From: Rhizaria sp. SCN 62-66
Taxonomy: Eukaryota
DNA: 64,000 nt
Direction of reading: 5' to 3'
Assembly: GCA_001724265.1 (NCBI GenBank)
Contig: MEDY01000171.1
Coordinates: forward strand, 1-64,000
A program made the position numbers and the translations under genes. Below the pieces are notes generated by a model. The model saw nothing but the letters and a program-made list of their open reading frames with translations. It ran no database searches and was not told the origin of the DNA. Shown piece after piece: positions 17,372-57,869 of this stretch; the first letter of the stretch is position 1; every line of letters begins with the position of its first letter.

Positions 17372-20300
17372 TCAGGACTGACTGGTTCGGTTCTCGAATA
17401 ACGCGGGAACGCGCATGAAGGAGTCCATCGCCCTCGCAAATACAATAGGAACGGACTCGTCGACGTTCTCGCCCAGCTGGTCGTTAAGACAGACGTACGT
17501 ATGCCGGTCCGCGCCGAGGAAGTACTCGCGCACCTGCGTCAGCGTCGACCGCCAGCCCTGCGGCCCGCGGTAGTTGAGCCCGGTGAAGAGGACGTCGTTC
17601 TCGCCCTGCCGCGTTCGGTACAGCGGGCGCGTCTCCAGGTGCGTTTGCTCCAGCAGCGCCATCGCTACCGGCCACGCTGTGAACTCATCCAGCGTCATCC
17701 GTACATCAGCAGTGCTCTTACCAGAGTCAGTGGGCTCGGCGTCAGTGTTGGCGCCAGTGTCGGCGCCGGTGTCGGTGCGGGCGTCGGTGTTGAGGCGCCA
17801 GGGCTGAGCGCGCAGCAGCGCAGCGCAGTCGTCTGCGCACAGCACGGCCACTGCGGCGCCGTCGGGCAGCACCGCGGTCGCCGCCGCGCGCAGAGTGCGC
17901 ACGCGCAGCGGGTCCCCGGCCAGTGCGGCCGCCGCGGCGGCGTCAGCGAGCAGCGCACCCGTGCGTGGCGGGACCGAGAACGCGGGCGAAGTGATCTGGC
18001 GCACTGCGGCCGCCGCGGTAGCGTTCACGTTCACGGGGTCTAGTTCGCCGTCGTCATCCTCGTGCAACGCTGTCGTCGTCATGGTCGTGGTCGTCGCCTT
18101 CCTCGCCGCCGCAGTGCGGGCGGCCGCCAGACGCTGCTTCGGGGAGCTCGCTGTCGCTGTCGCCGTCGCTGTCGCCGTCGCGGTCGCCGACTCAGCACCA
18201 GCAGATGAGGTCGCAGCCGTCGTTGTTGTCGCTGTTGCTGCAGTTTTGAGCGGCTGCGTGCGGGCAACGCGGTCCACGGTCAGCGGGACTGCGAAAGGGT
18301 GGCGCACAGTGCCGCGTAGACGGTGCGTTTCACGCGGCGGCGGCGGCGCGGGCGCGGCGACGAGCGCGGCCAGCAGCACCCGCACCTCGAGCTCCGAGTC
18401 TAGCGTTCCACTGCAGTCCAGGTCCGCGTCCGAGAAAAAGGCCTCAGCGAGCGTGACCGTGCTTGCGTGGCGAGCGAGCGCCTGGAACGACTGCAGCAGC
18501 GTCGTGTGCTGGATGTCGACGGACCGGCGGAACGGCGTCGCCTCGACGGTCGCATACTCCTCGGGCAGCAGCGCGTGCGCGTGCGCGATGACGTGGCGGC
18601 TCGACAGCACCTGCGCGTGCGCCGGGTCCAGCTCCAGCGCGCTGCCCGTCGCCTTAACCGCCAGCGCGTGCGCGCGCATCTTGTACTCCGGGTACGGCGC
18701 GCGGTTCGGGTCCTTAGGCTGCAGCGGAAACTTGAAGTCGCCGCGCACGCGCCGCGCCCACGCCTGCCGCAGCACGGGCGCCTGCGCGCGCGCCGCGAAC
18801 GCCTCGGCCCCGCTCGCCGCGGCCCAGCGTTCGAACTGCAGCGGCTCCACCTCGTGTGCGCGGCCCGCCAAGTCGTCCGGCGCGCGCGCGTAGCCGTGGT
18901 CGAAGTCGTGCCGGAAGCCCACGGGCCGCTGCCAGAAGGACTCGGCGAAGAAGCTCCGCAGCGCGCCCGCTAAGTGCTTGCGGAACGCCGCGCCGGGTAC
19001 CGCCGCCGCACGGGAGAGTGACGGAAGCGCGGCAAGCGGCGCATAGGAGAGTGAGAGCGCGAGCGCCGTGCACGCGCGCGCTGCGACGCATGCGCTGGGC
19101 GCGGCCACGGCGGCGGGCACGAACGCGATGCGGTCGCGCTGCGCGCTAGCGATGTCGTCGGCCGCGGCGTCCAGCTCGCCCGCTGACACCGCTAGCGCTT
19201 CGGGCGGCGCGGCGAGACGGCGCAGCGCGGCGTGCGCGGCGCGGGCGAGGAGCGACTCCGCCAGCGCCTGCTTTGCCTGCAGCCGCGCATGGCGCGAGAC
19301 TTGCTCCTCGGCGGGGAGCTGCGAGAGGCGCAGCGCACAGTCGCCGCCGTCGAAGGCGCAGGCGGGCACGTCGCACGCGTGGTCGCACACGCCGTCGCCG
19401 CGCCAGACAGTGAAGCACCCGGGCGCGCATGATAGCGCGGCTTCGGCGCCCCGGGGCGCGGGCTCCTCCGCAGGCGTGGAATCCTCCGCAGAGTTCGCGG
19501 CGGCGTTATTTGCGGCTGTGTTGTTTGCGGCTGCAGGCGGGTGCTGCCAGTCGGGCGCGGCGACAAGGACGCGCGCAAGGACGACGAGCGGTGCGGACGC
19601 CGCGGGGGAAACGGCAGCTGGCGAGTCAACCGCTGCGGCCGCAGCGAGATAGTCCTCCGTGGACAGAAAGGGCGCAAAAACGCCCGGAAGCGTCCTGTCC
19701 GCGTCAAACGCGGCGTACGAAAGCTGGGCAACGTGCGCGGCGTTGGTGGCGAAGGTACCCAGGAACGAGAAGAGCGCGGCGTAGGCCGTGGCTTCGGTGG
19801 GCGCGGCGACATAGTTGCGCTCGCAGTCGCCCAAGTCGAAGTCGCACATCTCGTTCATACAGCGCTGGTCGCACACGCCGTCGCCGAGCATGGTGAAGAG
19901 ACAGCCCGGCGAGCAGGGGTGCGGCGGCAGCGGAACGTACATCTGCGTCACGCCCAACGCGTGCTCCACCAGCGCCCGCTGCGGCAACATCTTGGCCATG
20001 AACAGGTCGTCGTTGGAGTAAAACAGGTAGTCGGCGAGCCCCGGCACGCGCTGCAGCGTCGTCTCAATCGCGTTGGAAGAGAACGTCGGCAGACTGCTGT
20101 TGCGCACGAACACCGTCGCGTGGGGCGCCACAGTCACCTTGGCGGGCGCGGCGTCCCAGTTCGCCACTGCGGCAAGGGCCGTGGCGGGCGAGGGCGCGGC
20201 CGAGGCGGGCAGCCACGCGGGGACTTGATCGAAAGTGAGCAGAAACGCGTGGCGCACCCACGGGTTGTACTGGTACGCGGACCGCAGCGCGTATTTGATC

Positions 20301-21400
20301 TCGTTCATCGACCGGAACCGGTCCTTTTTCACACCCGCGCGGCTCAGCGGCGCGGACGGTTTGCTCGGCGGCGGCGGAACATACTCGCCACTGTCATCAT
20401 TGCCGTCATCTGCCTCGCTGTCACCCTTGCTGCTGCTGTCGATGTTAGAGTTAGAGACAGAAGTGTCCGCAAGTGGGCCGTCACTCCTGTCCACACCGAG
20501 CACCGCTGCTAGCGCCTCGTCAGCGTCAGCCACCGCTAACACAGCAGCCTGTGCCGTAAAGCTGCCCGTGGCATTCGCAGAGGCAGCAGCAGCAGCAGCA
20601 GCGGCGGCATCGTCGATGAGCTGTTTCTTGCGCTGAGCCATGGCAGCCAGCAGCACGGGGTCGGAACCGTTGACCCACGTGTACACCATGTCCACGCGTT
20701 CCACGCACTCATGCAGCGGGTAGCGCGCGCCGCGCCAGCTCTCCCACGCCGTCTCGTCCGACACGCCCGCGCCGTCGGCAGCGACGCGCGCGGTGGCGCA
20801 GAACTTGCACACGGGCTGCTGCAGCTACTGGCCGAGAGTGTGCAGGTACGGCGTGCGGCGGTTGCGCGCGTCAAAAAAGCGCCCTGCTGGGAAGGCAGAG
20901 TGCGTGTCGTAGGCGTGCTCGCGCTGCAGCGGCGGGTGCGCGGCCATGAAGGCCGGCGGCGCGCGGTAGAGACCGGGGGTGTTCTCGAGCAGCGAGCCCT
21001 CGGACGCGAGGCCGGTCCAGAAGCCCGCCGCGCGCGCGAGCGCCGAGGACAAGGCGTACGACAACACCGCGGCAGACTCCGATGCAAGCCACTCCGCGGG
21101 CGTGGTGCGCGGTGCTGCGACGAAAGGGGTGTGCGACAAGCGGAATGACATCGATTTGACAGGCTCGACGGATGGTTGGGCTCTGGGGTCGCCGCCTGTG
21201 AGGTTGAGCCACGTGGCGTACGCAAGCAGAGAAAGGCTAAGAATGGCGAGAGTGAAGACCGTTCGGCGGGTGACGCGGTTGCGGTCTCTGCTCGACACAT
21301 AGGCGACAGGGTCTGGGTCGGTGAGCGGGGAGCGGGGCGAGGACGGAGCAGTCGGCACGGCGATGGGCTAGTACTGCGACCTTCCTCGGAAGCTCCTCAT
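17372..21400 (-). CDS. GNPTAB: Stealth-family GlcNAc-1-phosphotransferase alpha/beta-like protein with 2 LNR repeats; 1342 aa if the in-frame TAGs at 21368-21370 and 20825-20827 are sense
   Basis: ATG at 21400, N-terminal TM 'VFTLAILSLSLLAYATWL', CR1 VDMVYTWVNGSDP, CR2 EIKYALRS...PTFSSNAIE...YSNDDLF, two LNR repeats (CSPGC..LGDGVCD..C..CDFDLGDC), EF-hand-like DADLDCSGTLD, CR4 YVCLND. One continuous frame apart from the two TAGs. Ends in TGA. Confidence 0.85.
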
Positions 21401-22281
21401 GTCGTTCTGAGAGGATCAAACCAATATTGGTCCAATAAAAAGTTCACTACTCCAAGTGGTTGTCGGACTAACAAATATGGATCGCACAGTAATCGGAAAA
21501 ATGGTGTAATGAGCAATGTGAAACGCAACGCCATCGACTGTCCAAGCAGGCATCCTTCAAATGAAGCTAATAAGACTTATCAAACGAATCGAACAGTAAA
21601 TTTTCAAAAGCACTTTTAAAACAAGTAGCTTCACCCCATTGTCCTTTAATATATCACGTTGACGATCCGTCTGGTTCAGAATCGGCTCAGTTTAAATGTG
21701 AGCTCGGAACAGAGCGACGCCCCTGCGAGACAGTTAGGAGACAGTGATGACGACCGGAGCTTAAGTCTTTTCAAGATAGATTCACGTATATCCCACACAG
21801 TGGCGCAACAATTCGCAGATATCGTTGATAAAATAAACACCTGTGTATATGCTTTGTGTTCTACTCAGTGGGGCACATTTAGTAAGAGATAATGCGGCGT
21901 GGAGTACGAACAGTGACGATGCGTTTGTGTGTCACTCAAACGCAAGTTAAGTTTGATGTCGGTGCATGACGCAGATTAAAGAAAAAGTAAACAGAGGTTC
22001 ATTAATAAAAGAGAGAGAGATATATATATACGATATTTTTTTGATAAGACTAGTTCAAATCCATCACGAACAAATCGCGACAGACGGTTTTTGAGTTATA
22101 CACATGAGAGTTACACACCGATCCTTGAAACAAACAGAAAAGAACAGGTGCGTGCGTCCACCACCACTTTCACATTGTACGGCCGCATCACGCCAAAGCA
22201 CAGTACTACACACATACAGTCGTGCTACACCAATCACAGAGCCCCCCACAGAACAATGGCAGTCAAAGCAGACCGGCCCGT

Positions 22282-25200
22282 TTACTGGTTGAGACCCTGG
22301 AAGATGCCGCCATTCTTCTGGTGCTTCTTGGCCTTCTTGATCGCGTCCGCGAGCGGCTTGTTGCCCACGCTGAGCGCGACGTCGTACGCCTTGCGCCCCA
22401 CACCGTTCTTGACGGAGAACGACCCGCCTGCGAAGATGAGCGCGTCGAGGATCTCCCACCGGCCCGCCGCGGCGGCGATGTGCACGGCGTTCTGCTGCCC
22501 CGCCGCCAGCGCGTTCGGGTCCGCCTTGGCCTTGAGCAGGCTCTCCACCGTCACCAGCGCAGGATCGCGCGCCGCCTCGGCCGCGGCGGACGCGGCGGCC
22601 GCGGCCACGGTGCGCGTCGCTGCCGTGACACTGCCGCGGGGGCCGGATTCCTCCGCGCCCGCGCCAGCGGCGATAGCGGCGCCGGCGGCCGACGGCATAG
22701 GGGCCGAGATGTTTGTCGCCGCAGCGCCCGCCGCAGTGGCAGCGGCCGCGGTGGCAGCGGCAGCGCCCGAGGGCTGGACGGAAGCCGCAGGCGCGGCGGG
22801 CACGGCCGAGTGCGTCATACTGGCCGCCGCGAGAGAGAGCGCCGTGTTTCCGATCGCATCGGCGAGCCCCACGGCGGCGTTGGCCTCGAGCAGCGTCTTG
22901 GTCGTGTCGGCGTTGCCCTCGGCCGCGGCCAGCATCAGCGCCGTGGACCGCCGCGCCGCGCTCCGCAGGTCCACCGTGGCTTTTGACGCGAGCAGAAAGC
23001 TCACGATGTCGGTCCGCCCGCGGCGCGCCGCCCAGTGCAGCGGCGCCAAGTCACCGGAGGGCCCCGTGGCGTCGACGTCGGCCTTGGCGGCAATAAGCGC
23101 GCGCGCCACGGAGAGATGCCCGCGCTGCACGGCGTACAGCAGCGGGGTCGCACCGCTGCGGCCCGGCGCGTTGACGTCGGCCTTGAGCCGCAACAGCGCC
23201 GTCGCCACGGCCGTGTGGCCCGCGTACGCGGCGAGGATCAGCGGCGTCTCGCGAGTGTCACTGGCCGCGTTGGGGTCCATGTGCGCGTCGGCGACGAGGA
23301 TCTGCACCAAGTCGCTCAACCCCTTTTGCGCCGCGTCGTGGAGCGCGGTGAAGCCATTGCGGTATGATAAATGCAATGGGGCGCGCGCGGAGACGAGCGC
23401 GCGCACGATCACGTCGCTCTCAGTCGCCACGGACCGCGCATTCGCGGTGGCCAGCGCTGACGCTGCAGCGGCGGACATGCGCGCGCCGTCGGAGCCCGCG
23501 GCCGGAGCAGCAGCAGCGCCGCTGGCACCAGCCGAGCCGGCGGCAGGCGCGGCGGCGGCAGCAGCAGACGCGCCTGCTCCGGCCCCTGGCGCAGATGCAG
23601 ACGCGGACGCGCCACCGCCGCCGCTGACTGCAGCGACAGCAGAGCCCGGCACCGCAGCGGGGCCGGCGGGGGCGCGGAGGGCGCGCGCGGTGGCGCCCGG
23701 CGTGGGCAGTACGCTGGGTCCTTCACTGCCATCGCTCGGAGCCACAGCGGCCGCAGCAGCAGCAGCAGCAGCAGCAGAAGCGAACGCGCCCTTTTCCTTC
23801 TCAGCGGCCGCCGTCGCGGCCGGAGGAGCGTTAGCGGCGGCGGCCTTGCGCTCTTGCTCGACCTGCTTCTGGTGCTCCTGGAGCATCTTTTGCACGTCGT
23901 CCTTGCGGAACGTGGCCGTGGCGATCTGCACGCGCGCCTTCATGATTGCGTGCGCGATCGCCGTGTGGCCGCGCGCGCGCGCCAGCTGCAGCGGCGTCCG
24001 GTCGTGGTCGTTGGCAATGCGCACCGTGGCTTTGGCCTCGAGTAACGCGATGACCGACGGCATCTGCCCGGCGTCGGCCGCCACGTGCAGCGGAGTGTTG
24101 CCGTTGTCGTCCTTGGCGTTGACGTCGGCGCGCGCGGCCAGCAGGTGGTGAATCACGGCTTCGCGCCCGCCGTGCGCGGCCAGGTGCAGCGGCGACATGT
24201 CGTACACTGGTGTCCGCTGCGAGGGGCCCGCGCCGTATTGCAGCAGCAGCGCCGCGATGTCGCCGTGGCCCAGCGCCGCCGCGCGCTGCAGCGGCGTGAT
24301 AACCACGTCCTCCATCCCGCTCGCGCCGCCGCCGCAGTCGGCACCGCCAGCGCTGGCCACGGCGGCGGCGGTGGCGGCAGCGGAGGAAGCAGACGCGTCC
24401 GCCGCGGCGGCCTGGAGGAATCTCAGGTCGTCGCCCTCGTCCAGCCCGTCTGCAGCAGCGGTGGCAGCGGCGGCGTCCGAAGCGGCCTCGCGCGCGCCCG
24501 CGGTGATGGCGGTGACGCCCGGACGGCCCTCAGGGTCTGCGCCGAGCTCGAGCAGCGCGCGCACAGTCGCGAGCATGCCCGCCTCGGAGGCCTGCACGAG
24601 CGCAGGCTGCCCCGTCTCGTCTGACACGGCCGAGGGGTCCGCGCGGCGCCGGATCAGCGCCGCCGCGGCGTCGTCGTCGCCCGAGTCGAGCGCCGCGAAG
24701 AGCTCCGCGGTGGTCACCGTCACGGGAGTCGCCAGCGCTGCCGCGGCCGAGGGCGCGGTCAGCACGCGCTTCGGCCGCGCCGCGCTAGGAGTCGGCGGCG
24801 CTGAGCTTGAGGCTGACGCAGAGGACGCAGAGGCCGTGAGCACGGGCGCAGTGATGACGGCGCGCGAGGTCGGAGCGAGCGAGGGCGTCACGGCGGGGCT
24901 CGGGTAGGGCTCGCCCAGCTTGCGCGGCCCCGCGCTGGGCGTGGCCGCCGCGCTGCCCGGCGCGCTCGACGCCGCAGACCCCGACCCCGGCTGCGGCTGC
25001 ATGAGCGGCACGGGCACTGGTGTGGGGCCGCCGGGCGGGGTGGGCGTGGGCGACCCTTGCCCGCCACCGCCGACCTGGTCGTGGAAGGACCGGAGTGAGA
25101 CGCCGTCGACGGCCAAGGCCAGTCCGCCGAGGGCGGCGCCAGAGTCGCCGAAGCTCACGTGGCTCTGCTGGCCGTGGCCGTGACCGAGGCCGATGGCATG

Positions 25201-27540
25201 CAGCGGCAGCGGGGCGAGCACGTCGCCCTCGCCCTCGGGGTCCGCCCCGCCGCGGCGCTGGTCATCAAGTCTGGAACCAGAGGCGCCGGCTCCAGCGCCA
25301 GAGGCTGCGCCGGAGACTGAGTTGCGCCCGAAGCCGGAGCCGGCTCCCGAGGCAGCGGTAGGGCTGTCCGCGACGATGACGCCGACAACGCGCATGGAGC
25401 GCTCGGCGCCGTCCTCGCCGCGCACAAGCACGCGCTGCGGGCCCGACGGTGTCTGCTGCGGCGGCACTGTGCGCAGCGGCGAAACGCCACGCTGCGGCGA
25501 CGCCCTGCGCTGCGGCGACGCACTGCGCAGCGGCGATGCGCCACGGAGCGGCGACGCGCCGCGCGAGCCCGCAGCGGAGGCTGCGGCGGACGCGGCGCCA
25601 GAGGCCGCGGCGGAAGCAGGGCCGGAGACAGCGCCGTAGACGGGAGCGCAGAAGGGGTTCGCGCCGCGCGGGGTCTCGCAAGGACTGCCCTGCGTGGGCG
25701 CACGCACGACGCTCGCGCGAGACTGCGGCTGCGACGAGTCCGCGTAGGGCCCCGTCACCAGCGGCGCCGGACTGCGCCCGCGGCCCGCGCCCGCTCCCAC
25801 GCCCGCGGCGGCCGAGACGGAGAGCCTGCCGCGGCCGCGGCCGGGCGACGGCGAGCGCGACTGCGCATAGCCGCCACTAGTCGACGGGCGAGGCAAGTCG
25901 CGCGACGGACTCGCGTTGGGCAGCGGCGTCGCGCGGCCGGGCCCCGCGCTGGGCGAGCGGGACCGCGCGCGCGCGGCGTCGTAGTCGCCACTGGGCTTGC
26001 GCGAGTGTTGGCCGAACGAAGCGCCGGGGCTGGCGTTGGCGAAGGACGCCGCGGCAGAGTTGGTGGCAGCGACGCGTGGCGCGGGGCCCGGCGCGGGGTG
26101 CAGCACCGAGTTGATCAGCGGGTTCATGATGCGCGGCGACAGCGTGGCGGCGTGGTACGCTGGGTCCTGCGCGATCGCCTGCCGCAGGTAGCCCGTGATC
26201 GCGGTCGCACCGCCCTCGAGCGAGGCCTCGTAGGCGGAGCGGCCATGGAAGGCGGGCACGGGGAACAGCCGCTCAGGGCGCGCCGTCACGCGCCGGCTCT
26301 GCTCGAACACGGGCGCGATAGTCTTGCGAAAGCGCTCCTCGTACATCGGCCCGCGCTCGAGCGGGCGCGCGCCGTGCTGCAGCAGCAGGTGGACCATGCC
26401 CGCGTTCTGCCGCCGCACAGCCTCGACTAGCGGCAACGACGCGAAGGCCGTGGCCGAGCCCTCGGGCAGCTGCAGCAGCCGGTGCTGCACGCCGCCGTCG
26501 AACGCCGACACGGGCCGGTTGGGGTCGGCTTTGGCGGCGAGCAGCAGGCGCGCGCAGGGGATGTTGCCGCGCTGCACGGCGGCCAGCAGCGGCCACTGCA
26601 CGCCGCGCATCACGGCGCCGTCCTGCGCCGCGGGCGACGTGGCGTTGACGTCACAGCCGCCGCGCACGAGCGCCGCCACGCCCGGGGCGTCGCCCGACGC
26701 CACGGCGGCGCAGAGCAGCTCGACTTCTTCCTCGATCTGCGCGAGACAGACGGGCCGCAGCGCCTCAACGGCAAGCGCGAACTCGAGCCGGCGCGCGAGG
26801 TCAATCGGCGCCTCGCCCAGCGAGTTGACAGGGAACAGGAACGCGCGGCGCTGGACGAGCAAGTCGACGCGGTGCTGCGCTTTGCCACCCGCGCCGCCGC
26901 CCGCGGCCCACGCGCGCGCGGGGCCCGACGCCGCGACGCCAGGCTCCGAGAGCAGGAGCTGGATCATCGGCTTCGAGCCCACGCGCGCGGCCGTGTGCAG
27001 CGGCGTCTCGTGCTTGCCGCCCGCCGCGATGTCCGAGTACGCGCCCTTGTCCAGCAGCGCCTCGACAGCGTTGAAGCGGGCCGCGCGGATGGCAGAGTGC
27101 AGCGGCGTGTCTTGGTAGCGGCCCAACGCGCGGTGGATCTCCAGCGCGGGGTCGCTGTGCGTGAGCAGCGCGACCACGACCTCGGCGTTGCCGCGCTCGG
27201 CCGCCCAGTGCAGCGCGGTGTTGCCCGTGGTGTCCAGGATGAGCGGGTCTGCGCCGAAGCGCAGCAGGTGGTCCACGCAGATGTTCGCGTTCTTGATGCT
27301 CGAAAGGATGAGCGGGGTGTAGCCGTACTGGCCCTGCGCGTCTGGGTCCGCACGGTGCTGAAGCAGGGCCAGGGCGAGGTCGGCCGCATGTCGCGCGCAA
27401 ACGAGGTGAAGCAGCGTATTGTTCTGCGGGTCTCGCGTGTCGACGGGAGCGCCGTTCTTCAGCAGGCGCTCAACCGTCGACAGCTTGCCTTCGTAGCATG
27501 CATCCAGGAGAGCACCCTCTTTAGACACTGTCCCTCCCAT
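22282..27540 (-). CDS. Multi-ankyrin-repeat protein (1752 aa) with predicted N-myristoylation
   Basis: Single-exon ORF starting MGGTVS. Many ankyrin motifs (GNTALHWAAERG, TPLHSA, GNTPLHVAADAG, GFTALHDAAQKG, ETPLILAAYAGH) in three clusters separated by low-complexity linkers. Ends in TAA. Confidence 0.9.
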   Translation of the reverse strand: MGGTVSKEGALLDACYEGKLSTVERLLKNGAPVDTRDPQNNTLLHLVCARHAADLALALLQHRADPDAQGQYGYTPLILSSIKNANICVDHLLRFGADPLILDTTGNTALHWAAERGNAEVVVALLTHSDPALEIHRALGRYQDTPLHSAIRAARFNAVEALLDKGAYSDIAAGGKHETPLHTAARVGSKPMIQLLLSEPGVAASGPARAWAAGGGAGGKAQHRVDLLVQRRAFLFPVNSLGEAPIDLARRLEFALAVEALRPVCLAQIEEEVELLCAAVASGDAPGVAALVRGGCDVNATSPAAQDGAVMRGVQWPLLAAVQRGNIPCARLLLAAKADPNRPVSAFDGGVQHRLLQLPEGSATAFASLPLVEAVRRQNAGMVHLLLQHGARPLERGPMYEERFRKTIAPVFEQSRRVTARPERLFPVPAFHGRSAYEASLEGGATAITGYLRQAIAQDPAYHAATLSPRIMNPLINSVLHPAPGPAPRVAATNSAAASFANASPGASFGQHSRKPSGDYDAARARSRSPSAGPGRATPLPNASPSRDLPRPSTSGGYAQSRSPSPGRGRGRLSVSAAAGVGAGAGRGRSPAPLVTGPYADSSQPQSRASVVRAPTQGSPCETPRGANPFCAPVYGAVSGPASAAASGAASAAASAAGSRGASPLRGASPLRSASPQRRASPQRGVSPLRTVPPQQTPSGPQRVLVRGEDGAERSMRVVGVIVADSPTAASGAGSGFGRNSVSGAASGAGAGASGSRLDDQRRGGADPEGEGDVLAPLPLHAIGLGHGHGQQSHVSFGDSGAALGGLALAVDGVSLRSFHDQVGGGGQGSPTPTPPGGPTPVPVPLMQPQPGSGSAASSAPGSAAATPSAGPRKLGEPYPSPAVTPSLAPTSRAVITAPVLTASASSASASSSAPPTPSAARPKRVLTAPSAAAALATPVTVTTAELFAALDSGDDDAAAALIRRRADPSAVSDETGQPALVQASEAGMLATVRALLELGADPEGRPGVTAITAGAREAASDAAAATAAADGLDEGDDLRFLQAAAADASASSAAATAAAVASAGGADCGGGASGMEDVVITPLQRAAALGHGDIAALLLQYGAGPSQRTPVYDMSPLHLAAHGGREAVIHHLLAARADVNAKDDNGNTPLHVAADAGQMPSVIALLEAKATVRIANDHDRTPLQLARARGHTAIAHAIMKARVQIATATFRKDDVQKMLQEHQKQVEQERKAAAANAPPAATAAAEKEKGAFASAAAAAAAAAAVAPSDGSEGPSVLPTPGATARALRAPAGPAAVPGSAVAAVSGGGGASASASAPGAGAGASAAAAAAPAAGSAGASGAAAAPAAGSDGARMSAAAASALATANARSVATESDVIVRALVSARAPLHLSYRNGFTALHDAAQKGLSDLVQILVADAHMDPNAASDTRETPLILAAYAGHTAVATALLRLKADVNAPGRSGATPLLYAVQRGHLSVARALIAAKADVDATGPSGDLAPLHWAARRGRTDIVSFLLASKATVDLRSAARRSTALMLAAAEGNADTTKTLLEANAAVGLADAIGNTALSLAAASMTHSAVPAAPAASVQPSGAAAATAAAATAAGAAATNISAPMPSAAGAAIAAGAGAEESGPRGSVTAATRTVAAAAASAAAEAARDPALVTVESLLKAKADPNALAAGQQNAVHIAAAAGRWEILDALIFAGGSFSVKNGVGRKAYDVALSVGNKPLADAIKKAKKHQKNGGIFQGLNQ

Positions 27541-28199
27541 GGTGAGTTAAACGCAGGTTAGGCCACGAAATGCCGTGAATCTAACGAGTGAGATGATGGG
27601 AGGTTGCCAATGAATAGAAGCGGACAAAAGAAGGTATTCATGGCGAGTAAGAGAAACCAAAATAAAATATAATACATTTTACCAAGTATACTTACACGTT
27701 CAAACTAGTTTGTGGCTATTTATGATAGATGAGACGCATATGAGCAGTTCTGGCTACCTGCTGAGCGCTCGGTAATACAGTTTGCCTTCTTTGCAGTGAG
27801 GGCTCATTTCGCATCTAAAAATACGGTGATATGATCATAGGCCACGAAAATAGATGGAACAATGCCACAGTTCTACACATAATAACACTTTATCTTTATT
27901 AGCACTCCGTGCTGGCGCAGGTTTGGAGTTGTCTGCACAGTTTGATGTGTTGCTGCCTGACTTCATGTTCGACCTGACCTCGTGCGCTAGAAACTGCTGC
28001 TGATAAGATGCCACACACGATATTTAGGTTTAATAACACGACGAATGGGCATCTTCATAATCAACAATGCTAATTCCATGACCACACACTCAAACATTTG
28101 ATTTTGCATGCGCACACGCGAAGACAGGCAACCTTCCACAACTGCCAATTCAAATCTCTTTTCATCTTCTGGCCGCTCCAGGTCACTCAACCGTGTTCA

Positions 28200-29996: not shown

Positions 29997-30281
29997 GTGT
30001 TTGACTGATTCACAGAACTGCCACTCAAGCTACAAGCATGAATTTTGTAGAGACGTTTTCACAATGACATGTGTATTTCTGAACGAAAGTTCTCCCATTG
30101 TGGGGGGAACTTTGATGCCACGCGCGTATTATGAGCGATCTACAAACTAAATATTAACTTACGGCACTACGTTACATTAGCTTAATTTCTTATATAACTC
30201 TTCATAATTTTCTCTAAGTAGACACTTTTACTGATTTAAATACATTCGTTTTACATTCACGCGAATGAAATCTCCACGCGA

Positions 30282-38508: not shown

Positions 38509-38560
<52 letters not shown>

Positions 38561-42345: not shown

Positions 42346-42347
<2 letters not shown>

Positions 42348-42399: not shown

Positions 42400-42401
<2 letters not shown>

Positions 42402-43719: not shown

Positions 43720-44573
43720 CCTGCTAGGGTCTGCGAGGGCAAAAGACGAGTGAGGGGAGGTAGTGGACACAAGTATGTCATGTAAGCACGCGTGTTATAG
43801 CATAAAACATGTAAGGATTGCATTAGATATTCTTGAGAAGTGCTGTTAGCGTGTTCGTGAAGGGGCGGTGCGAAGGATCGTTGAGGCAGAGAGCGACGTC
43901 GATAGAAGGAAACGAGCGGATATGAAGCAATCACGCAAAGTGAATTGAGCTCTCGCAGCGCCTTGGCGTAAAAAAACAGGATGACATAATAGCCGTCAAC
44001 AAGAGACCATCTGGAGAGGCGGATATCGCGAGCACAACCGTCTGTGAGGCATGCGAGAGAGAGGGGGGACACACGCTCGGGTTGACACAAGCTTAGCACT
44101 GAATTGCACCGTGGCTATGCAGCCAAACGAAAAGAAAATAAGATGCAGCAATAGCCACATCGATGCTATTCCCATACAAAATGCTACAAAAGTATAAGGC
44201 AAACAACTCCCGCCCAGGAGAACGAGATATTGACGTCAAGATCAGCGCTTAGTCATTGGTCGGAGAAGAATCACACGCGCCGCCCGCCCGCCAATTCTGG
44301 ACCGAAAAAGTCGTCCCGAGCAGGTATCTTTGAACTCGAATTAAGGTCACTCAACGTCCGACGTGGGAGTTCATACCACTATGGCTGGGGCTATTTTGCT
44401 GTTTTTTGTGTGTGCTTTTAATTATCAATGTGCCGATGGCCCCTGTCGCTTTGTAGCCCTCCCCTCACCGTGAGCCCATTCACCTTACGCCCCCTTTGCT
44501 CTCCGACTTGAAGTTCCCTTCGCCCAACTGTAATGCAGAGAAGCCCGAAGCATTAAGCCTTGAACCTGGGTAC

Positions 44574-46864: not shown

Positions 46865-46897
<33 letters not shown>

Positions 46898-49800
46898 ACA
46901 GTCGAAGTCGCTCGCAAACTCGCCGTCACGCTCGCCGTCGCCGTCGCCGTTCCAGGCGCCGTCGCCTCTCGTGTCAATGGTGTCGATGCCGTCGCCCGCG
47001 TTTGCACCGCTGTCGCCCCCGGCCTCGCGCCCCGTCTCTCGCCTCATTGCGCGCTCGACGTCGCGCCCCGTGTCACGGTCTGTGTCGCGGCCGGCGTCGC
47101 GCCCGCGCTCGCAGACGCGCGAACACCCGCCCCACGCGTTCGCGCACCTGCAGCTGCACGTGTCGGGCTTCGCGCCGCCCGCGTCACAGTCCGAGCCCAG
47201 CGGCGCCGATGCGCCAATTGCAGGCGCGCGCTCCACGGCCTGGCCCGCAGACGCCGTCGCCGCCGCGCGCGCCGCGGCCGCTGCAGCGGGCTTGCCGGGG
47301 ACTCCCCCGCGCGACTCCGCCTCTGACCACGCGTCCGCTGAAGAAGACCCTGGACAGAAGATGCGCCAGCGCAGTACAGAGAGGAAGAGTGACGCGCGCA
47401 GCGGCGCCAACGCCGAGGAAGAGCTTCTGCGTCTGGCGGCCGCGTTTGACCCCGTGCGCATCCTCGCGTCGCTCGCGGCGCAACGCTCACCTCAACAGCA
47501 GAAACAGCAACCGACGCGCACACAGAAGCAGCACAGTGTCGCGCAGCCGCGCGCGCCTGCAGGTGTGCTTGCGCGTCTTGCCAGCGCATCTGCGGCGCCG
47601 GGCGCGGCCACTGCCACTGCTATCACTGCGACTGCGAACGAGGCAGGCGCTGAGCCCACGCCGCGCGCGCCACCGGTGCCGCAGTCCGTGCCGCGGTCGC
47701 TCAGCCGGCCCGCCTTCAGCTACGCGCGCGCGGACGGCGCTGGCCGCGTGCCCGTGGCCTTCGCGGCCGCGGCCTCGCTTGCGTCGCAATCCCTGCTGCC
47801 CATGCAGAGGCTTACGCCGACGACGACGCCGTCGCACTCCGCGTCAGCGACGCCCGCGCCGACGCGCACGCGCGCACGTCCAGTGTCTGCGTCAGCGCAT
47901 GGCTCGCTGGCGGGCCTGAGGTCGCGCCCGGTCCAGACCGTGGATAATGTGCACACGTTGCCTGTGGACAAACACGGCAAATTCCGGCCTAGTCCAACGC
48001 GCAGCGCAGCACCCGTCCGGCTGGAGCCCAAAGCGGCGCCCAGCGGCTACGTGCAGCGCTACCAGATGGCCCGTTGCGCCACTGCCGCGAGCGCCGCGAC
48101 GGCGGCCGTCGCTGCAGCCGGCCCGATCCCGGCCGCAGCGCTCGCCGTGTCCGCCGCCAGCGCCCCGCTCACGCCCGGGCTCTCGCCTCCGTCCGCGCCC
48201 GTGCCCAGCTCTGGCAGGGCCGCCGGCGCGCCCTCGCGGCCGCCGGTGCGCAGCGTCGCCGACCGTGACGCTGCCCCGCGCGCGCTGTCGGTCGCCGAGT
48301 CCATTCGCGCTGCGGCGGCGCTGGCGACCAAAGACGCTTCCGACGCCGATGCCGCAGAGAAGGCCGCTGTCGAGGCCGCGGCCGTGCGCGCTGCCGCCGC
48401 CGCAGCGACTGCGACCCTGAGGGCGAAGCGCCAAGCGCGGGCCGCTGCGAAGGCCGACGTTGAAGCCAAGGCCGCGGCAGCCGAGACTGAGTTCTGGTCC
48501 GAAAGTGCCCGCAACGCCAGTCGCCTCGCGCTATCTTCGATGTCTGGCTCCGGGCGGATGCACGCTGGACAAGAATCCGGCAGCCCGCACCGGCGGAGGC
48601 ACGGAGAGGATATCATCAGTGACGTGCATCTGCCGCAGCCGTCTGTGGCGCTGGCACCGGCGCCGCGGCAGCTTGTGCCGATGCTGCCCCTTGTGGGCGT
48701 CGCCGGTCTGCGCGGCGCGCACGCCGCCGGCAGCGACGATGAGAGCGCTAGTCTGGGCGCGTCGCTCAGCCCCAGCCCCAGCCCCAGCCCCAGCCCCAGC
48801 CCCAGCCCCAGCCCCAGCCCCTGCGGGAGCGGCAGCGATCGCGAGGGCGGCGGCGGCGGTGGCGCGGGCGCCGATGGCGGCGAAGACGGCGTCAGCCAGG
48901 ACGACGCCAGCGCCGTCTTCGTTGCCGCGCACATGCGCCACGGGCCCTGGCGCGGCTTGGTTGTCGGTGACGCCGCGGCCGAGGGCCAGACCGTCGCCAA
49001 CTCTAACGCAGCCGCGGACCGCGACGGCGCGAGCACCGCCACAGCACCCCCTGTCGGCGAGAGCGTGGGCGCACAAAACGCGGGCGCGCGCAGCGGGCTA
49101 GGCTACCACACGTGGGTGCGTTTGCAGGACGCAGATCTGCAGTCGCGGCCACTCTCGCTACCGGTTTCAGCGCGCTCCTCCGCGTCGTCGTCCTCGTCAT
49201 CGTCGCAGCCGTCGCCACACGCGCTGACGTCGTCGCCACGGGAGCCCGTTTCGCCGGAGGTGTCGTCAGCGTCGTCGTCGGCGTCATCATCGGCGTCCGC
49301 GGCCTCGCTGCCGCACGCGCGCATTTACGCGTCGTCGCCCGCCGCCTCCACACAGGCGTCCGCAGGTGTGGCGCCGCAGCCGCAGCCGCAGTCGCTGTCG
49401 CTGGACGATGCGCAGGCGCTGGCGCTCGAATCGCTTCCGCACCACGGTCCCGACCAGTTTCCGCCTTCCGCGCCCGCCGCGCCCGCTGAGGCCGCACAGC
49501 CGTTGCGTGCGCAGCCCTTGCGTGGACACTTGGGCTTTGACGCACACCATGGCCCCACGGCTGGCCCTGAACACGCTCACGGCCACGGCCACGGCCACGG
49601 TCATGGTTACGGGCAGGGGCACGGACAGGGGCATGGACAGGGACTAGGGCCTGACATGTTTCAACCACCCCCGCAGCAGGGCGCGCAAGGCATGTTTGCG
49701 CACTCGATGCCTCCGCTTGACGCGGGGGCACCGCTGCACGGGTCCGCTTCGCACCTGTGGCCGTCGCAGTTCGCGCCGCAACAGTACCAGCAGCACCAGC

Positions 49801-50579
49801 ACCAGCACCAGAGTCAGCAGTGGCAGCGGCAGTCCAGCTCGTGGCAACAGTCGCCGTTTCATCAAGCGCCGGTACCGCAGCCACAGCTCCAGCACCAGCA
49901 GCAGCACTGGCCCCAGCAGCAACACTGGCAGCATCCGACTCAGCCTCAGCATCAACCTCAGCTTCAACAGCAGCACCAGCCGCAGTGGGGCCTCCCGCCT
50001 GCGTTGTTGCCCCCACAGCCCCAGCCGTCCAGCGCGCCTCACAGCGGCTGGCAGCCCGCGCCGCCGCAGGGCTCGCGCAGCGTCAGTCCATTCAGCGGCG
50101 AATTCACCCTCACGCCCACTCACTCGCACCACGCGCACTCGCACAACGCCAACGCCACCACAAACACTTCTGCTGTTCCCAATGCTCAGCCACAAACGTA
50201 TACGGTGTCGCCGGTGTCTGCCGACGGCTCGCACAGCCTCGAGGGTAGTCCCGGGCTGGCGCCGATTGTGTCCGCGGCGGGCGCGGGCGCGCTGCGCCGG
50301 CCGCCGCTGCCGCCCTCTGGCGTGCGCGCGCGTGGAGGTACGCGGTCGCCGCTGCGTCTGCCGCCGCGCCCGCTGCCGCCCCTCGAGGAGGTCGACGAGG
50401 GCGCGGGCGCGGGCGCGGTCAAGGCCGCGCTGTCGCCCGTACCGGAGCTCCCCGAGTCACCGGTAAACCGCGAACAGAGCGAGATCGAGACGCTGGAACG
50501 CGTGCTGATGGCGCTCAAAGGTGGTGACTCAGACGGCGACGACCTCGACAAGGCGCTTGCAGCCCTCGAGTTCTTATGA
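44574..50579 (+). CDS. Large low-complexity, probably disordered protein (~2000 aa); start uncertain (44574, or 44436 via a TAG)
   Basis: A 6 kb GC-rich ORF bounded by AT-rich flanks, with SP repeats, HG repeats and a Q/H/W-rich tract. Ends TGA-TAA. No domain recognised. Confidence 0.75.
48767..48820 (+). repeat. (CAGCCC)9 coding hexamer repeat encoding (SP)n
   Basis: Directly visible tandem units. Confidence 0.9.
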
Positions 50580-51025: not shown

Positions 51026-52407
51026 ATGTCTTCTACCACTCTTGCGCCCCCGGCAGCGGACCCTGCTGTTGAAGAGGTTGACGAGAAGGTCGATGATTAC
51101 GACGAGGTCCGTTCTTTCTCCCTCCCTGCACAAATCGCTGCCGTTCCTGCCCGCTCTGTGTCGACCCACGCTGTGCTCCCCGACCCATGTACATCTACTT
51201 ACTGTATTTTCTTAATTTATTTTCCTCTTTCTGCATCTCCCCGCTTGCACAGACTATTCCCCAGGACCCGCAGCTGCGTCTGGCCGAGCTTCGCCACATC
51301 TGCTCGCTCTCTGCGCCGCTCGTGTCGGCCGACGAGTCCGCAGCCGCGCTCGCCGAGGCGCTTGCACTCGTCAAGGAGCACAACATGGTCGAGTACTACA
51401 AGCTGCTTGTGCCCGCCGCGCAGCGCGACGCGGCGCTGGTGGCCGACATGACCGCCAAGAACACCGCCGCACTCGCCGCGCTCGCCGCCAAGGAGGAGGA
51501 CGCTGTCGCCAACGCAGGCGACACCGAGGTGCTCGAGATCAAGCTCAAGCGCGCCGCGCTGCTCGCGCGCTCTGCGCCCAAGAAGGACGCGCTGGAGGCC
51601 TACGAGGTCTGCTTCGGCAAGGCTGTCGGCGGCGCCGCGCGTATCGACGTCGTTATGGCGATGCTGCGCGTTGCCGTCGCGCACGGCGACGACGTGCCGC
51701 AGTGCGCCGCGCTGCTCGCGCGCTGCGACGCGCTCGTTGAGAAGGAGGGTGACTGGGAGCGCCGCAACCGCCTGGGCGTGTACAAGGCCGTGGTGGGCAT
51801 CTGGGAGCGCGGTTTCGCGGCGGCGGCCAAGCGTCTCGTCGACGCCGTGCCGACTTTCACGTGCACCGAGCTCATCTCGTTCCAGACGCTTGTGCTGCTG
51901 ACCGTGGTGACAGGCGTAGCGCAGCTGGACCGCGTGACGCTCAAGGAGAAGGTAATCGATTCGCCCGACATCATCCAGACCATTGGCGAGATTCCTGGTC
52001 TGCGCAACGTGCTGCACGCGCTGTACGACTGCAAGTACGACGTCTTCTTCCGCGGACTGCTCGACCTTGCCGCGCTCTGCAAGCGCAACCGCTTTCTGGC
52101 GCCGCACGTCGAGTTCGTGTTGCGTGAGGCGCGTCTCGTGGCCTACGTCCAGTTCCTGCGTTCGTACCAGTCCGTGACGCTGCAGTCGATGGCGGCGCTG
52201 TTTGGCGTCTCCGCGGCCTTCATCGACGATGAGATCTCGCGCTTTGTCTCTGCGGGCCGCCTTGCGTGCAAGATCGACGCCGTCGATTCTGTCGTCGAGA
52301 TGCTCCATCTGGACAAGAAGACCGCCCAGTACCAGAGCATGATCAAGGAGGGCGACGCCGTCCTTAACCGCGTCCAGAAGCTCGCGCAGAAGCTCAAATC
52401 AACCTAA
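51026..52407 (+). CDS. PSMD6: 26S proteasome regulatory subunit RPN7, 2 exons: 51026-51106, 51253-52407 (411 aa)
   Basis: NAGDTEV, GDWERRNRLGVY, PTFTCTEL, YVQFLRSYQSVTL, GRLACKID, YQSMIKEGDAVLNRVQKL. Intron 51107-51252 (GTCCGT...CAG) is in frame. Ends in TAA. Confidence 0.96.
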
Positions 52408-52838: not shown

Positions 52839-55800
52839 ATGCCGGGTCCACCGTGCATCGAGTGTCAAAACAAACGCTTGAAATTTGCGAGTCCTGATTG
52901 CAATCAATGTGCTCTGCGAAATCCACCTCTAGTTCCTTTTGACGATGTTCTTGCTCCCCATCGCCTCAGTCCCGGGGTTCTTAAGAGGCTTATGCCGACT
53001 CCCGAGATTGCTCTCAATGAAGCCCGCTTTGAACTCTCCCTCACGGCGTTCTAGTCTTTTGCTCATGACGCTGAGAAGGTGCTATACTCCCTCCGCGAAT
53101 CCCCCGACGCAGCTGGCTTTATCAAGCTTGACCCAACATCTCCGGCGTGCTTTCTCACGTCCACAAACTCCTTTGGCGTCTACGCCTTTATGGCCCATAT
53201 TGGCTTTTTCTTCCACAAGCACTGCCTTGTGATTCCGAAGGCCCCCGACTACATGGTGATCTCCTCCTTGGTTACTTGCCTCCGCACGAAGCGCACCGCA
53301 AAACCTAAGGATATTCCCAAGGCCTCGCTCATCAAGGCCGCCTTCGAACGCGAGCGCCCCACGCTGCTCAAGCAGGTGCCTCCTATAACTAAACTTTCCG
53401 CGGCGGCCGCCAAGGCGCCCATTAAGACCAATTTAGTGCCTTCACAGGCACCTATGTGCACAATTTCTTCCACCAAGGCTACCATTGCTGGAAAGCAATG
53501 CGCTCACCTTAGCCACTGTTACGATTTTTTCTGTGTCGGCGCGCACCCTCCGTCGCGTCCGGCGCTCTGCTCAGCGAGCCTGGCGTCCCCTCCTGTGCCG
53601 TGCAAGACCGATGACTGCCCGAAACTGCATCGGCTGGGCATGGGGCCCAACCGCGGCGTGCTGGCGTCGTCCCCGCCCTGTGATTTCTTCGACACCTGCA
53701 CCTCCTTCTACTGCACCAAGTCCCACGGGCCCAGTCGCCGCCTTACTTGCTGGGACCCCGCCTGCGCGTCGGCCAAGTGCGGTCGCGCGCACGACCTCAG
53801 GAAGATGCACGCTAACCGCGACGTGTTGTTGCGCGGCGGGCCCGCCGCCGAGGCCGCCATCGCCGAAGCCAAGGCTCGCGTCCGTGCAGAGCAGGTGTTG
53901 TACTAGCAACAGCAGGAACAGATTGCCGCCATAAGGGCCGCCTCCGCCGCCGCTGTGGAGACCAAGCCCGCGGTGACCCGGGCCGTTTCCGCGGCCGACA
54001 GCGGGCCCGCAATGCCACTGGCCGAGGCCGAACACGCGTTCGAGCTCTTCTGCCAGGAGTACTACACGTTGAATTTGCGTAATCACGCGTCGCAGGCGGG
54101 GGTGTTGACCGCGGATCTGTCCGTAATTGCGCGCAGCGAGGCCAACAAGCTCGCCGCTATCCCCGTCACCGCCTACAAGAACGGCAAGAGGGCTGTCCAC
54201 TCGAACGCCAACGCTGACGCCGAGGGCGATGGCGAGGGCATGCGCAGCGGTGGCCACGACCTCGAGGGCGACGCCGCCGCCGAGGCCGGTGCGAACGGTT
54301 ACGTGCTCTTTTTCCTGCGCATCTCGCACTTGATGATGTGCTTCGTGCTTCCGGCAGCGACGTCACCAGCGCGCCTCGTGGAGATTCTCAAGAAGCTTGA
54401 CGTGTTGCCCGACCACTGCCTGCTCGAGAACACGCGCTTTGTCGTTCTGCCGCCCAACGCCACCGCGGCGGCCGCCGCCGCCGCGGCGCTTCCGACCGCG
54501 CCCGTGCTGCAGCCCTACACCACACTGGCTGCCGCGCGCGTGGCGTCCCGCTCCACGCTGGAGCTCTCGTTCACGGGCCAAATGGCGTCGATGATGAACA
54601 ACATCATCGCGAGCCGCTTCCCGCCGACCGCGAACGAAATCGCCGTCGTTGGCGCGGTCAGTGACCCCGCGGCGTCACGGCTCCGCGCGCGCACCCCCTT
54701 CGCGCATAGCAACACCGCCGCCGCGCGCGCGCTGGGCTTCATCGCCAAGCCCGATGTGGAGCCACAGCAGCAGCCGGATGACCTGCAGGGCGTGCTGCAA
54801 GCGGCCAAGAGTAAGGCAGCGGCGGCCGCGGCGGCGACGGTCAAGGCGGGCAAGACCGTGATCGCGACTATGGGCCCCGCGGCGAACCCGCGCAAGGCCG
54901 GATTCGTCTCGGCCGCGAACCTCAAGGGCGGCAAGGCGGGCAAGGCCGGCGCCGCTGGCAATGGCGCCGACGGCGATGACGACGACGAAGAGGAGCACGA
55001 GGGCGACGGCAACGACGGCGAAGGTGATGACGGCTGGGTGCGCGTGAGCAAGTCCGGCCGCGTTGCCGCGCGCAAGCGCTCGCCGTCGCCAGGCTACAAG
55101 CTGGGTTCCATCGACGCCGACGGCTTTGAGGTCGTCCCTCAGTCCGCGCTAGAGGCCGAGAACGCGCGCGTGGCCGCGCGCCGCGCCGCGGCCGAGGCTG
55201 AGGAGGCGCGCATGTTGCGCGAGGCCCTGGCGCGTTCGCGCTACGACGTGGGCGGGCGCGTGCGCGACGAGTTCGTGGTGACCGAGCTCGAGGACGAGTA
55301 CGACGATGAGACGCGCACCGAGCTCATGAGCATCGCCGCCATGGACTTCCTGTCGCCCGAGGAGAACAAGATGATGCGCGACGCCGCCATCGCTGCCTAC
55401 GCAGACCGCGTCCGCAAGCAGAAGGAGGAGCTTGCGCGCTTTAAGGCCAACGCCGCGCGCAACGCGCCCCCGCCGCGCGCGCCCACGTCTTCTTCCGCGG
55501 CCGCGCGCACGCCCGTCGCCAGCTCCACCGCGCGTGCAAATGGCAACGGCAGCGGCGGGTCCTCTGGCGGCGCGATGCCCGTGACCGACTACGCGTCGCT
55601 GTTCGAGAAGAAGCCGCTGGTGCACGATGACCTGCCCGCTGCCCCCGCAGCGCTTGCGGCCTCCGCCTCCGTCTTGGCTCGCGCACCGCCGCTGAGCTTC
55701 GGCACCGCCACCGCAACCCCGGCCGCAGAGCGTGCACCCGCGCTGTCGTTCGGCGCCGCCTCCCCCAGTGCGCTGGACAACGCCACCTCCGGCTCCGGTC

Positions 55801-57869
55801 TCGGCCTGGGCGGCCTGGGCGGCATGGGCCTTGGCGGCCTCGGGCTTGGCGGCCTCGGGCTTGGCGGCCTCGGCGGTGGCCTCGGTAGTGGCCTCGGCGA
55901 CCTCGGCGGCCTCGGCGGCCTCGGCGCCGCCAGCCCGTCCAGTGCGGCCGACGGCGCCGCCTCCAGCCTCGGCCGCGCGCCCGCGCTGTCCTTTGGCACC
56001 GGGACCGGCGCTGCCGCCGGGTCTGCGAGCGCGCTCGACGGCGCCGCTGCCGGCTCCGGGCTTGGCCTCGGCGGCCTTGGCATGGGCGGACTCGGCATGG
56101 GTGGCCTTGGCTCCAGCGGTCTGGGCTCCAGTGGCCTCGGCCGCGCGCCTGCGCTTCCCTTCGGCACCACCACAGCCAGCGCGTCGTCGCCCAGCGCGCT
56201 CGACGGCGCCGCTGCAGGCTTCGGCATGGGCGGCCTCAGCGGCCTCGGCATGTCCGGTGGTCTCGGGCTCGCCGCCGCTTCCAGCGCGACCGCTGCCGGC
56301 GCCGCCAGCCCGGCGGCCGCCGCTGCGGACAACAACGCCGCCGCTGTGCCCAGCGCTACTGCTGTGAGGGCCGCCACTGCTGAGTCTAGCGCTGCCACTG
56401 GCCGCGCCCCCCCGCTGTCGTTCGGCATGGGCGCCGGTCTGGGCATGGGTTCTGGCATGGGCTTGAGCTCCGGACTCGGCATGGTCTCCGGCCTTGGAAT
56501 GGGCATGGGCCTGGGCGTGGGCTCGACGACGCCCCCCAGCGACATCACGCCTGCCGCCGCGACTGCGCCGGCGGCCAGCGCAGTCTCTGCCACCGACTCC
56601 GACGCCGCTGCCCCAGTGGCCACCGCGGCCGCGACCGCAACCATGACTGCGACTGCAGACAGCGCTGCCGCCGTCACTGCGCGCGCACCCCCGCTCGGTT
56701 TCCCCGCCAAGGACGCCGCCGCGGCCGCCCCCGCACCGCTCTCTTTGGGCCCCGGTCTCGGCCTCGGCATAGGCATGGGCATGGGAATGGAAATGGGAAT
56801 GGGGATGGGGATGGGGATGGGCACGACTCTGGACATGGGAGGGCTGTCGCTGCAGACCCCTGCCGTGACCGCTGCGGCCGTCGCCGCTGAGCCCGCCTCT
56901 GCGCCTGCGTCTGCGCCCATGCCTTCCCAGGACGACAAGTCCGCTGCTGCCGCCTCTGCTGCGACCTCGTCCGCGTCTGCCCCGGCCTCGAGCTCTTCGC
57001 CCGACGCTGTTCCCGCTGCCGACGCCGCCGCGAAGGCGGAGCCCACGGCGGAGACCAAAACGGAAACTGCGGCAGCTGAGACGAAGCCTGCGCTGGCCGC
57101 GGTTGCCGCCGCGCCCGTCGCCGCCTCTGCGGGCAGCAGCTCCTCGTCGTCCACCTTCGAGGACCCGGCCGTGGAGGCGTACATCGCGATGATTGTGCAG
57201 AGCAACCCCGCGGTGGCGAGCATGACTACGGAGCAGAAGCAGCAGATGTACCAGCAGTACCTGATGATGCAGCAGCAACAGCAGCAGTACATGGCGATGA
57301 TGCAGCAGCAGCAGTACATGGCCATGATGCAGATGATGCACATGCAGCAGCAAATGCAGCAGCAAATGCAGCAGCAACAGCAGCAGAGCGGCGACGTCAT
57401 CGCTAACTCCAACTCCAACACCGCGTCCAGCAGCACCGACGCGAGCGCGGGCGCCGGCATGGGCATGGGCATGGGTAGCTACGGCATGTCCGGCATGGGC
57501 ATGGGCATGGGCATGGGCGGTTTACAACCTTACATGGGCATGGGCGGCTCGAGCCAGTACATGGGCATGGGCATGGGCATGGACAACAGCATGGGCATGG
57601 GCATGGGCATGAGCGCCGGTCTGGGCATGGGCGGCATGGGCATGGGCATGGGATCCACTGGCATGGGCATGGGCATGGGCATGGACATGGGAATGGGCGC
57701 CGGGTCTTCTGACACTGCGTCTTCTGCCGCCGCCGCTCCCCTCGGTCTTTCAGGACTTACGCTTCAACTCGGCGGCGGCGGCGGCGGCCTGGGTGGCTTT
57801 GGTGCCGCGAGCGCCCCCGCAGGCACCGACAACAGCGCGGCTGCGGCGACGCAGAAGTGGGGGATGTAA
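52839..57869 (+). CDS. Zinc-finger (CxxC and CCCH-like), UIM-like and Gly/Met/Gln-rich protein; 1676 aa if the TAGs at 53052-53054 and 53904-53906 are sense
   Basis: Three track ORFs (52794-53054, 53079-53906, 53955-57869) share one frame and are separated only by single TAGs (AF*SFAH; VLY*QQQEQI). Four C-C-C-H units at ~53499-53791 and UIM-like EEARMLREALARS. Ends in TAA. Confidence 0.75.

Follow-up and report, generated by a model that had tools for sequence, protein, structure and literature searches.

The window analysed here is a 64 kb stretch of eukaryotic nuclear DNA (contig MEDY01000171.1, positions 1 to 64,000, to which all coordinates refer) in which the codon UAG is probably read as an amino acid. 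Three of its genes contain in-frame TAG codons. A GlcNAc-1-phosphotransferase-like gene with Stealth CR1/CR2 and LNR/Notch domains lies on the minus strand at 17372–21400, ends in a TGA at 17372–17374, and contains TAG 1 (21368–21370) and TAG 2 (20825–20827). Gene I, an Ala-rich gene of about 3059 codons with no Pfam family, is also on the minus strand (30282–39461), ends in a TGA at 30282–30284, and contains TAG 3 (32616–32618). On the plus strand, gene N (52839–57869, 1676 codons) has a Cys-rich N-terminus, CCCH-like fingers and a Gly/Met/Gln low-complexity tail; it ends in TAA and contains TAG 4 (53052–53054) and TAG 5 (53904–53906). These five codons had been reported in a preliminary description of this DNA, and all of them do read TAG at these positions and on these strands. 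As that description also held, the translations of the three genes have no TAA, no TGA and no frameshift over about 6,000 codons, leaving the five TAGs as their sole internal stops. The evidence is strong for TAG 2, TAG 3 and TAG 5; for TAG 1 and TAG 4 it is weaker than had been presented.

Contigs of four sequencing runs were compared with the window over 17300–37299, which holds TAG 1 to TAG 3. Run X3, a DNA run from a separate study, has contigs over 20646–21860, including TAG 1 and TAG 2, and over 27213–33423, including TAG 3, with no differences. A metagenome contig of 6187 nucleotides (nt) from a separate collection (L001) is identical to the window over 27237–33423 and likewise spans TAG 3, which is the same in X3, X6 and L001. 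This amounts to base-for-base agreement of three independent assemblies at TAG 3 and of two at TAG 1 and TAG 2, and no alternative letters at these three codons were reported in the four runs. For TAG 5 the support comes from gene callers, which end a product of 238 amino acids at this codon on five contigs. The TAGs are not assembly errors.

Pfam matches in the GlcNAc-1-phosphotransferase-like gene are to Stealth_CR2 (4.2e-24), Notch (7.1e-14) and Stealth_CR1 (2.9e-10). TAG 2 is upstream of every catalytic domain, in an unconserved linker between an N-terminal hydrophobic segment and Stealth CR1. In the homologs a hydrophobic N-terminus precedes CR1, and here that segment, judged by eye from the translation, is upstream of TAG 2. 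The guanine-plus-cytosine (GC) content of third codon positions (GC3), taken in the same frame over 150 nt, is 0.86 upstream of TAG 2 and 0.94 downstream. The 45 codons from TAG 2 to the next ATG have a GC3 of 0.93 and a GC of 0.74, compared with a GC of 0.33–0.49 in the 13 intergenic spacers. A search with the N-terminus of this gene for close relatives returned 10 matches, none above 41% identity. TAG 1 is uncertain. It comes 10 codons after the ATG at 21400, upstream of the hydrophobic segment, and is followed by 72 codons without an in-frame ATG, a stretch with a GC of 0.65 and a GC3 of 0.74.

TAG 3 is in a lineage-specific stretch of about 390 inserted residues that separates conserved blocks of a single domain. 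The query from gene I, residues 1791–2990, was compared with 1.84 billion representative proteins and gave 343 matches at E ≤ 1e-3, 68 of them at E ≤ 1e-10; most of the 150 matches listed align in three stretches. The best named match, a UBZ4-type domain protein of Spongospora subterranea (P0014), is collinear with the query, 287–359 corresponding to 25–95, 391–440 to 594–644 and 436–541 to 988–1124. Spongospora is a rhizarian, but this match is one protein and is no evidence of kinship. TAG 3 is at query position 505 and is therefore within the insertion, inside a single domain. By our own estimate from local base composition rather than by a tool, a non-coding insertion of approximately 390 codons should contain about 11 stops, and one is seen. 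The region 30531–34130 (minus strand) is a conserved domain without a Pfam family, split in this gene by the insertion. A scan of metagenome contigs with the C-terminus of gene I found one locus, L001, identical to the window.

In gene N, TAG 5 is between the zinc-finger region and the remainder of the gene. Same-frame GC3 over 150 nt is 0.88 upstream and 0.82 downstream of it, and over the 35 codons that lead to the next ATG the GC3 is 0.80 and the GC 0.72, again far from the 0.33–0.49 of the 13 spacers. The evidence for TAG 4, at codon 72 after the ATG at 52839, is moderate. Its surroundings have a GC of 0.50–0.58 with weak periodicity, and the 71-codon open frame upstream of it carries a C-x2-C...C-x2-C motif. 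When residues 1–420 were compared with the protein library, only the organism's own fragment matched. The tail of gene N (55500–57800, plus strand) is of unusual composition, with long Gly-Met, Gly-Leu and Met/Gln repeats making up the C-terminal half.

A sixth in-frame TAG, absent from the preliminary description, is found on the plus strand at 44454–44456, 6 codons after the ATG at 44436 of gene L (44436–50579). Gene L has 2040 codons and its ATG is well placed (gccgATGg). The sixth TAG is ambiguous: it may encode an amino acid or may close a short upstream open reading frame (ORF).

None of the 14 gene ends is a TAG, as had been claimed, and the even division of these ends between TAA and TGA does not hold, a recount giving 8 TAA, 6 TGA and 0 TAG. 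The TAA ends are at 4214–4216, 8953–8955, 22282–22284, 42193–42195, 42889–42891, 52405–52407, 57867–57869 and 58842–58844, and the TGA ends at 4427–4429, 15641–15643, 17372–17374, 29994–29996, 30282–30284 and 50577–50579. Those of Per1, CapZ alpha, EF-G and RPN7 are backed by end-to-end Pfam matches. In the 150 nt past the gene end the GC is low (0.24–0.43) at 10 of the 13 ends measured, the kinesin end not being among the 13, and GC-richer DNA follows the other three (ankyrin-repeat gene 0.53, EF-G 0.49, CapZ 0.65). No intergenic-like spacer follows any of the TAGs. UAA and UGA still serve as terminators, and neither occurs in frame in 15,810 exon codons, the same codons in which five TAGs are found.

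UAG is rare in this coding sequence, at 5 in 15,810 codons compared with 467 CAG in a set of 16,383 codons, or about 90 times rarer. Its positions are confined to unconserved linkers and low-complexity stretches, and none of them is in a conserved housekeeping gene of the window. For 14 ends without a TAG, P ranges from 0.10 to 0.002 as the share of TAG among terminators is set from 0.15 to 0.35, these shares being assumed rather than measured. The 14 ends are too small a sample for this to be a statement about the whole genome. The biological argument is stronger than the chance tests: 3 of 14 genes carry fixed TAGs with their frames, codon bias and downstream domains intact, and they do so in samples of different studies.

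The best explanation is that UAG is a sense codon while UAA and UGA are stops, which is the code that had been proposed, and it is probable that UAG is translated and that the other two codons terminate. Judged from the sequence, translation would have to continue through at least three of the TAGs, namely TAG 2, TAG 3 and TAG 5.

Several observations weigh against this reading. All of the evidence comes from a single window with 14 genes, and at a TAG share of 20% the lack of TAG ends has a probability of only P = 0.04. About 65% of the one-step nonsense changes possible from this codon usage yield TAG, so the absence of in-frame TAA and TGA is weak evidence alone; under this mutational null, a set in which all five of five are TAG has P = 0.11–0.13. 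Three of the six TAGs sit no more than 72 codons after the first ATG, where readings as 5' untranslated region (UTR) or upstream ORF compete. Among the RNA contigs listed for X7, a poly-A metatranscriptome run, and X4, a cDNA run, none spans any of TAG 1 to TAG 3. No TAG falls in a conserved column, TAG 2 being in an unaligned linker and TAG 3 in an insertion absent from the homologs. A scan of the 64 kb window found no tRNA genes, and eRF1 is also not in the window. Finally, the octamer GTACTAGC holds both TAG 1 (21367–21374, minus strand) and TAG 5 (53900–53907, plus strand); these are its only two copies in the window, both strands counted. The octamer resembles both the GTACG intron donor described below and a TACTAAC-type branch site.

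The base following the TAGs belongs with these observations, and it also fits efficient, context-dependent readthrough under a standard or ambiguous code. In that case eRF1 would still recognise UAG, but at leaky UAG-C contexts a near-cognate tRNA (Gln-CUG or Tyr) would decode it, giving the codon a dual meaning instead of a full reassignment. UAG-C is the leakiest termination context. C follows four of the five TAGs (P = 0.018) and the sixth TAG as well; of 13 terminators, nine have G or A as the next base and a single one has C. The great rarity of TAG and its restriction to unconserved stretches are also as readthrough would have them. Ambiguous codes of the stop/sense kind exist in other eukaryotes (PMC11687900). 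Nevertheless, not one of the 14 genes ends in TAG. Readthrough at TAG 2, if inefficient, would lose most of the product, and low efficiency would be costly because TAG 2 precedes every catalytic domain of the enzyme. Readthrough would be needed by 3 of the 14 genes, and this far exceeds the level known from standard-code eukaryotes. Readthrough is therefore considered unlikely, although it survives better than the other alternatives.

It is also conceivable that the TAGs are not translated at all, with TAG 1, TAG 4 and the sixth TAG being stops of upstream ORFs or intron acceptors and TAG 2, TAG 3 and TAG 5 lying in atypical, GC-rich introns. The preliminary description had implicitly treated the genes as intronless, and this premise is wrong. 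Six introns were verified by restored homology or frame, with lengths of 100–146 nt and a GC of 0.33–0.52; the donor is GTACG in five of the six and GTCCGT in the other. Five are on the minus strand, at 4952–5069, 6163–6294, 13276–13375, 59515–59633 and 60858–60966. The sixth is the first intron of RPN7 (51107–51252, plus strand), which has the GTCCGT donor, a length of 146 nt and a GC of about 0.5. The intron at 6163–6294 interrupts the motor of a KIF9-like kinesin. It is an in-frame intron of 132 nt (GTACGC...CTAAC...CAG, GC 0.37) and holds the sole in-frame TAA found. An in-frame stop is therefore not automatically coding, and each TAG needed its own test.

At TAG 2 there are nine consensus-like GT..AG candidates, all of which shift the frame and all of which have a GC of at least 0.69. 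An intron of 232–235 nt upstream of TAG 2, GTACG...CAG(TAG), was rejected, as it shifts the frame and has a GC of 0.72 and a GC3 of 0.86. No consensus-like intron donor spans TAG 3, and no consensus-like intron crosses TAG 4. At TAG 5 three consensus-like candidates keep the frame. One of them (GTCCGT...CAG, GC 0.55) is 42 nt long, far below the lengths of the verified introns, and the other two, of 177 and 216 nt, have an exon-like GC of 0.64–0.68. At TAG 1 a candidate intron of 101 nt, GTCCG...TACTAG, terminates exactly at the TAG, and no in-frame ATG upstream of it was found when the sequence was read by eye. A GTACTAG donor at TAG 1 was rejected on reading of the sequence, being in the wrong phase.

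The existence of introns, one of them in frame with a stop, the candidates at TAG 1 and TAG 5, the closeness of three TAGs to the first ATG and the lack of a listed RNA contig across TAG 1 to TAG 3 are all in favour of untranslated TAGs. Set against them is the composition of the DNA: the 72 nt windows that contain TAG 2, TAG 3 or TAG 5 all have a GC of at least 0.57 (range 0.57–0.75), which is above that of every verified intron. None of these three codons is crossed by a consensus-like intron that would keep the frame and have a normal size and an intron-like GC, and introns of the verified types cannot remove them. Same-frame GC3 periodicity reaches TAG 2 and TAG 5 from both sides, and the insertion around TAG 3 has a single stop where about 11 were expected. 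Because no listed RNA contig spans a TAG, the case against splicing or editing is an indirect one; even so, it is quite improbable that the TAGs are removed or left untranslated.

True premature stops are less probable still. The three genes would in this case be pseudogenes or nonsense alleles, or would be split into two independently translated parts. A set made up of TAG alone would be expected from the bias of one-step nonsense changes, the affected genes are all long and rich in low-complexity sequence, and standard-code gene callers do split them at the TAGs (P0011, P0161, P0163). However, no frameshift or other stop has accumulated over the roughly 6,000 codons of these genes, the codon bias and the conserved domains persist past the TAGs, no TAG is followed by spacer, and the same sequence is present in runs of several studies and years. 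Three nonsense-bearing genes out of 14 would be implausible in a free-living genome. An artefact of assembly or sequencing, or RNA editing such as a U-to-C change giving CAG, has nothing positive in its favour, is opposed by the agreement of the assemblies at TAG 1 to TAG 3 without alternative letters in the four runs, would, if editing were the cause, require a kind of nuclear mRNA editing that is not known to occur, and is the least probable of the alternatives.

If UAG is translated, the identity of the amino acid is a separate question. Glutamine had been proposed, and this part of the proposal is not established. It is correct that Gln is next to three of the five TAGs (P = 0.0028, uncorrected), and the contexts are rich in CAG and CAA. 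Tyr adjoins two of the five (P = 0.0069), both at the copies of GTACTAGC, and this weighs on the assignment to Gln. Close relatives covering a TAG site were sought in the protein library and in scans of metagenome contigs and viral contigs, and none was found (viral contigs: 0). Because the TAGs all lie outside conserved columns, the preference for Gln is weak. Given translation, it is slightly more probable than all other residues together; otherwise the residue would be Leu, for which there are precedents (PMC5304391, PMC11687900), or Tyr or another amino acid.

A tRNA that reads UAG would supply the amino acid at these codons, and eRF1 would no longer recognise UAG efficiently. The simplest source of such a tRNA would be a tRNA-Gln whose anticodon had changed from CUG to CUA. 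The rarity of UAG and its unconserved placement would fit a reassignment that is young or weakly used. An Rfam scan of the window gave no match.

The donor of the introns is unusually rigid, and CTAAC- or CTCAC-like branch motifs are found about 30–50 nt before the YAG acceptor. Together these intron features are a possible signature by which further contigs of this organism could be recognised. The CDC20 gene (58842–63157, minus strand) has at least three introns, and its exon at about 59634–60132 cannot be joined in frame by simple GTACG...YAG models.

The coding stretches of the window have a GC of about 0.65–0.77, the spacers have a GC of 0.33–0.49, and the GC3 across the window is 0.79. 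By Pfam, the gene set includes the KIF9-like kinesin, the Stealth/LNR GlcNAc-1-phosphotransferase-like gene, a large ankyrin-repeat protein, a mitochondrial-type EF-G, CapZ alpha, RPN7, CDC20, a Per1-like protein and a hexosaminidase fragment. For several of the window's very long Ala-rich genes there is no Pfam family. A prokaryotic or pseudogene origin of the window is ruled out by the introns together with the kinesin, RPN7, CapZ, CDC20 and Per1 genes. An open frame of 257 codons at 8109–8882 (minus strand), which is closed by a TGA a short way downstream of gene DC and has no Pfam match, is either a candidate gene or a GC-rich shadow frame.

Metagenome runs of bioreactors and wastewater contain the same DNA repeatedly, across several studies and years, and contigs of this organism reach 113 kb. 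The best explanation is that the host is a GC-rich, intron-poor microbial eukaryote of bioreactor and wastewater metagenomes. Among the 25 library proteins listed as matches to RPN7, one metagenomic relative has 79% identity and one has 53%, with the other 23 at 39–57%; the named proteins among them are uninformative on taxonomy. Scans of genome contigs with an RPN7 alignment and with a 32 nt pattern from the window gave no matches in either case. In the ankyrin gene, clustered differences from the window are seen in contigs of X7 and X6, at 26173–26209 and 26998–27126. This suggests that those samples contain a paralogue, or a strain or species related to this organism.

Reassignment of UAG alone is already known from Iotanema, from the rhizarian exLh and from phyllopharyngean ciliates, and the window most likely adds a further non-ciliate case. 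In Iotanema spirale (Fornicata) UAG encodes Gln, UAA and UGA are stops, and a change of tRNA-Gln from CUG to CUA has been proposed (PMC5304391). The code proposed for the window is of the same kind, with UAG alone as sense and UAA and UGA as terminators. However, Iotanema is an anaerobic metamonad studied by transcriptome, in which Gln was shown by conserved columns and likelihood (PMC5304391), whereas the organism of the window is GC-rich, its UAG is very rare and Gln is putative. In exLh (Sainouroidea) UAG encodes Leu, the terminators are 56 UAA and 15 UGA only, and UAG is avoided in highly expressed genes (PMC5304391). The reassignment proposed for the window likewise concerns UAG only, with UAA ending more genes (8 of 14) than UGA and with no UAG in the conserved housekeeping genes. 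The difference lies in usage: in exLh 384 in-frame UAGs were counted in 71 genes, most of them at conserved Leu positions (PMC5304391), compared with five or six in 14 genes here, none at a conserved position.

Phyllopharyngean ciliates use UAG as Leu (three TARA taxa) or as Gln (Hartmannula and Trochilia), have UAA fixed as the preferred stop and have tRNA-Sup(CUA) genes, as found through metagenome mining, which showed UAG-only reassignment to be repeated (PMC11687900). The window is like them in its probable reassignment of UAG only and in the preference for UAA as stop. Ciliates, however, use UAG widely. In our judgement the window is not ciliate-like, given its coding GC of about 70%, its long multi-gene DNA and its GTACG-donor introns. 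In another ciliate UAA and UAG encode different amino acids (PMC10553269). NCBI translation table 15 (UAG = Gln), named for crAss-like phages (PMC9523058), would formally be the same table if UAG = Gln holds here, although such a table stands for a code and says nothing of lineage. In the literature searched, which did not extend to supplementary files, no GC-rich eukaryote of wastewater was found to be described as reassigning UAG only.

Codes that split UAG from UAA are rare and are discussed as tests of the mechanistic coupling of the two codons (PMC5304391, PMC11687900). It can be proposed, tentatively, that the window comes from an unsampled lineage with an independent reassignment of UAG only, probably to Gln, at an early stage, and that it is the third non-ciliate case of such a split. 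Since standard-code gene callers split the genes at the TAGs, the proteins of this organism are truncated in public catalogues. If the reading of UAG as sense is true, one more independent case would extend the known range of these codes, to a GC-rich non-ciliate that recurs in wastewater and bioreactors. The rare UAG would then show an early stage of reassignment, a natural example of a freed stop codon first spreading.

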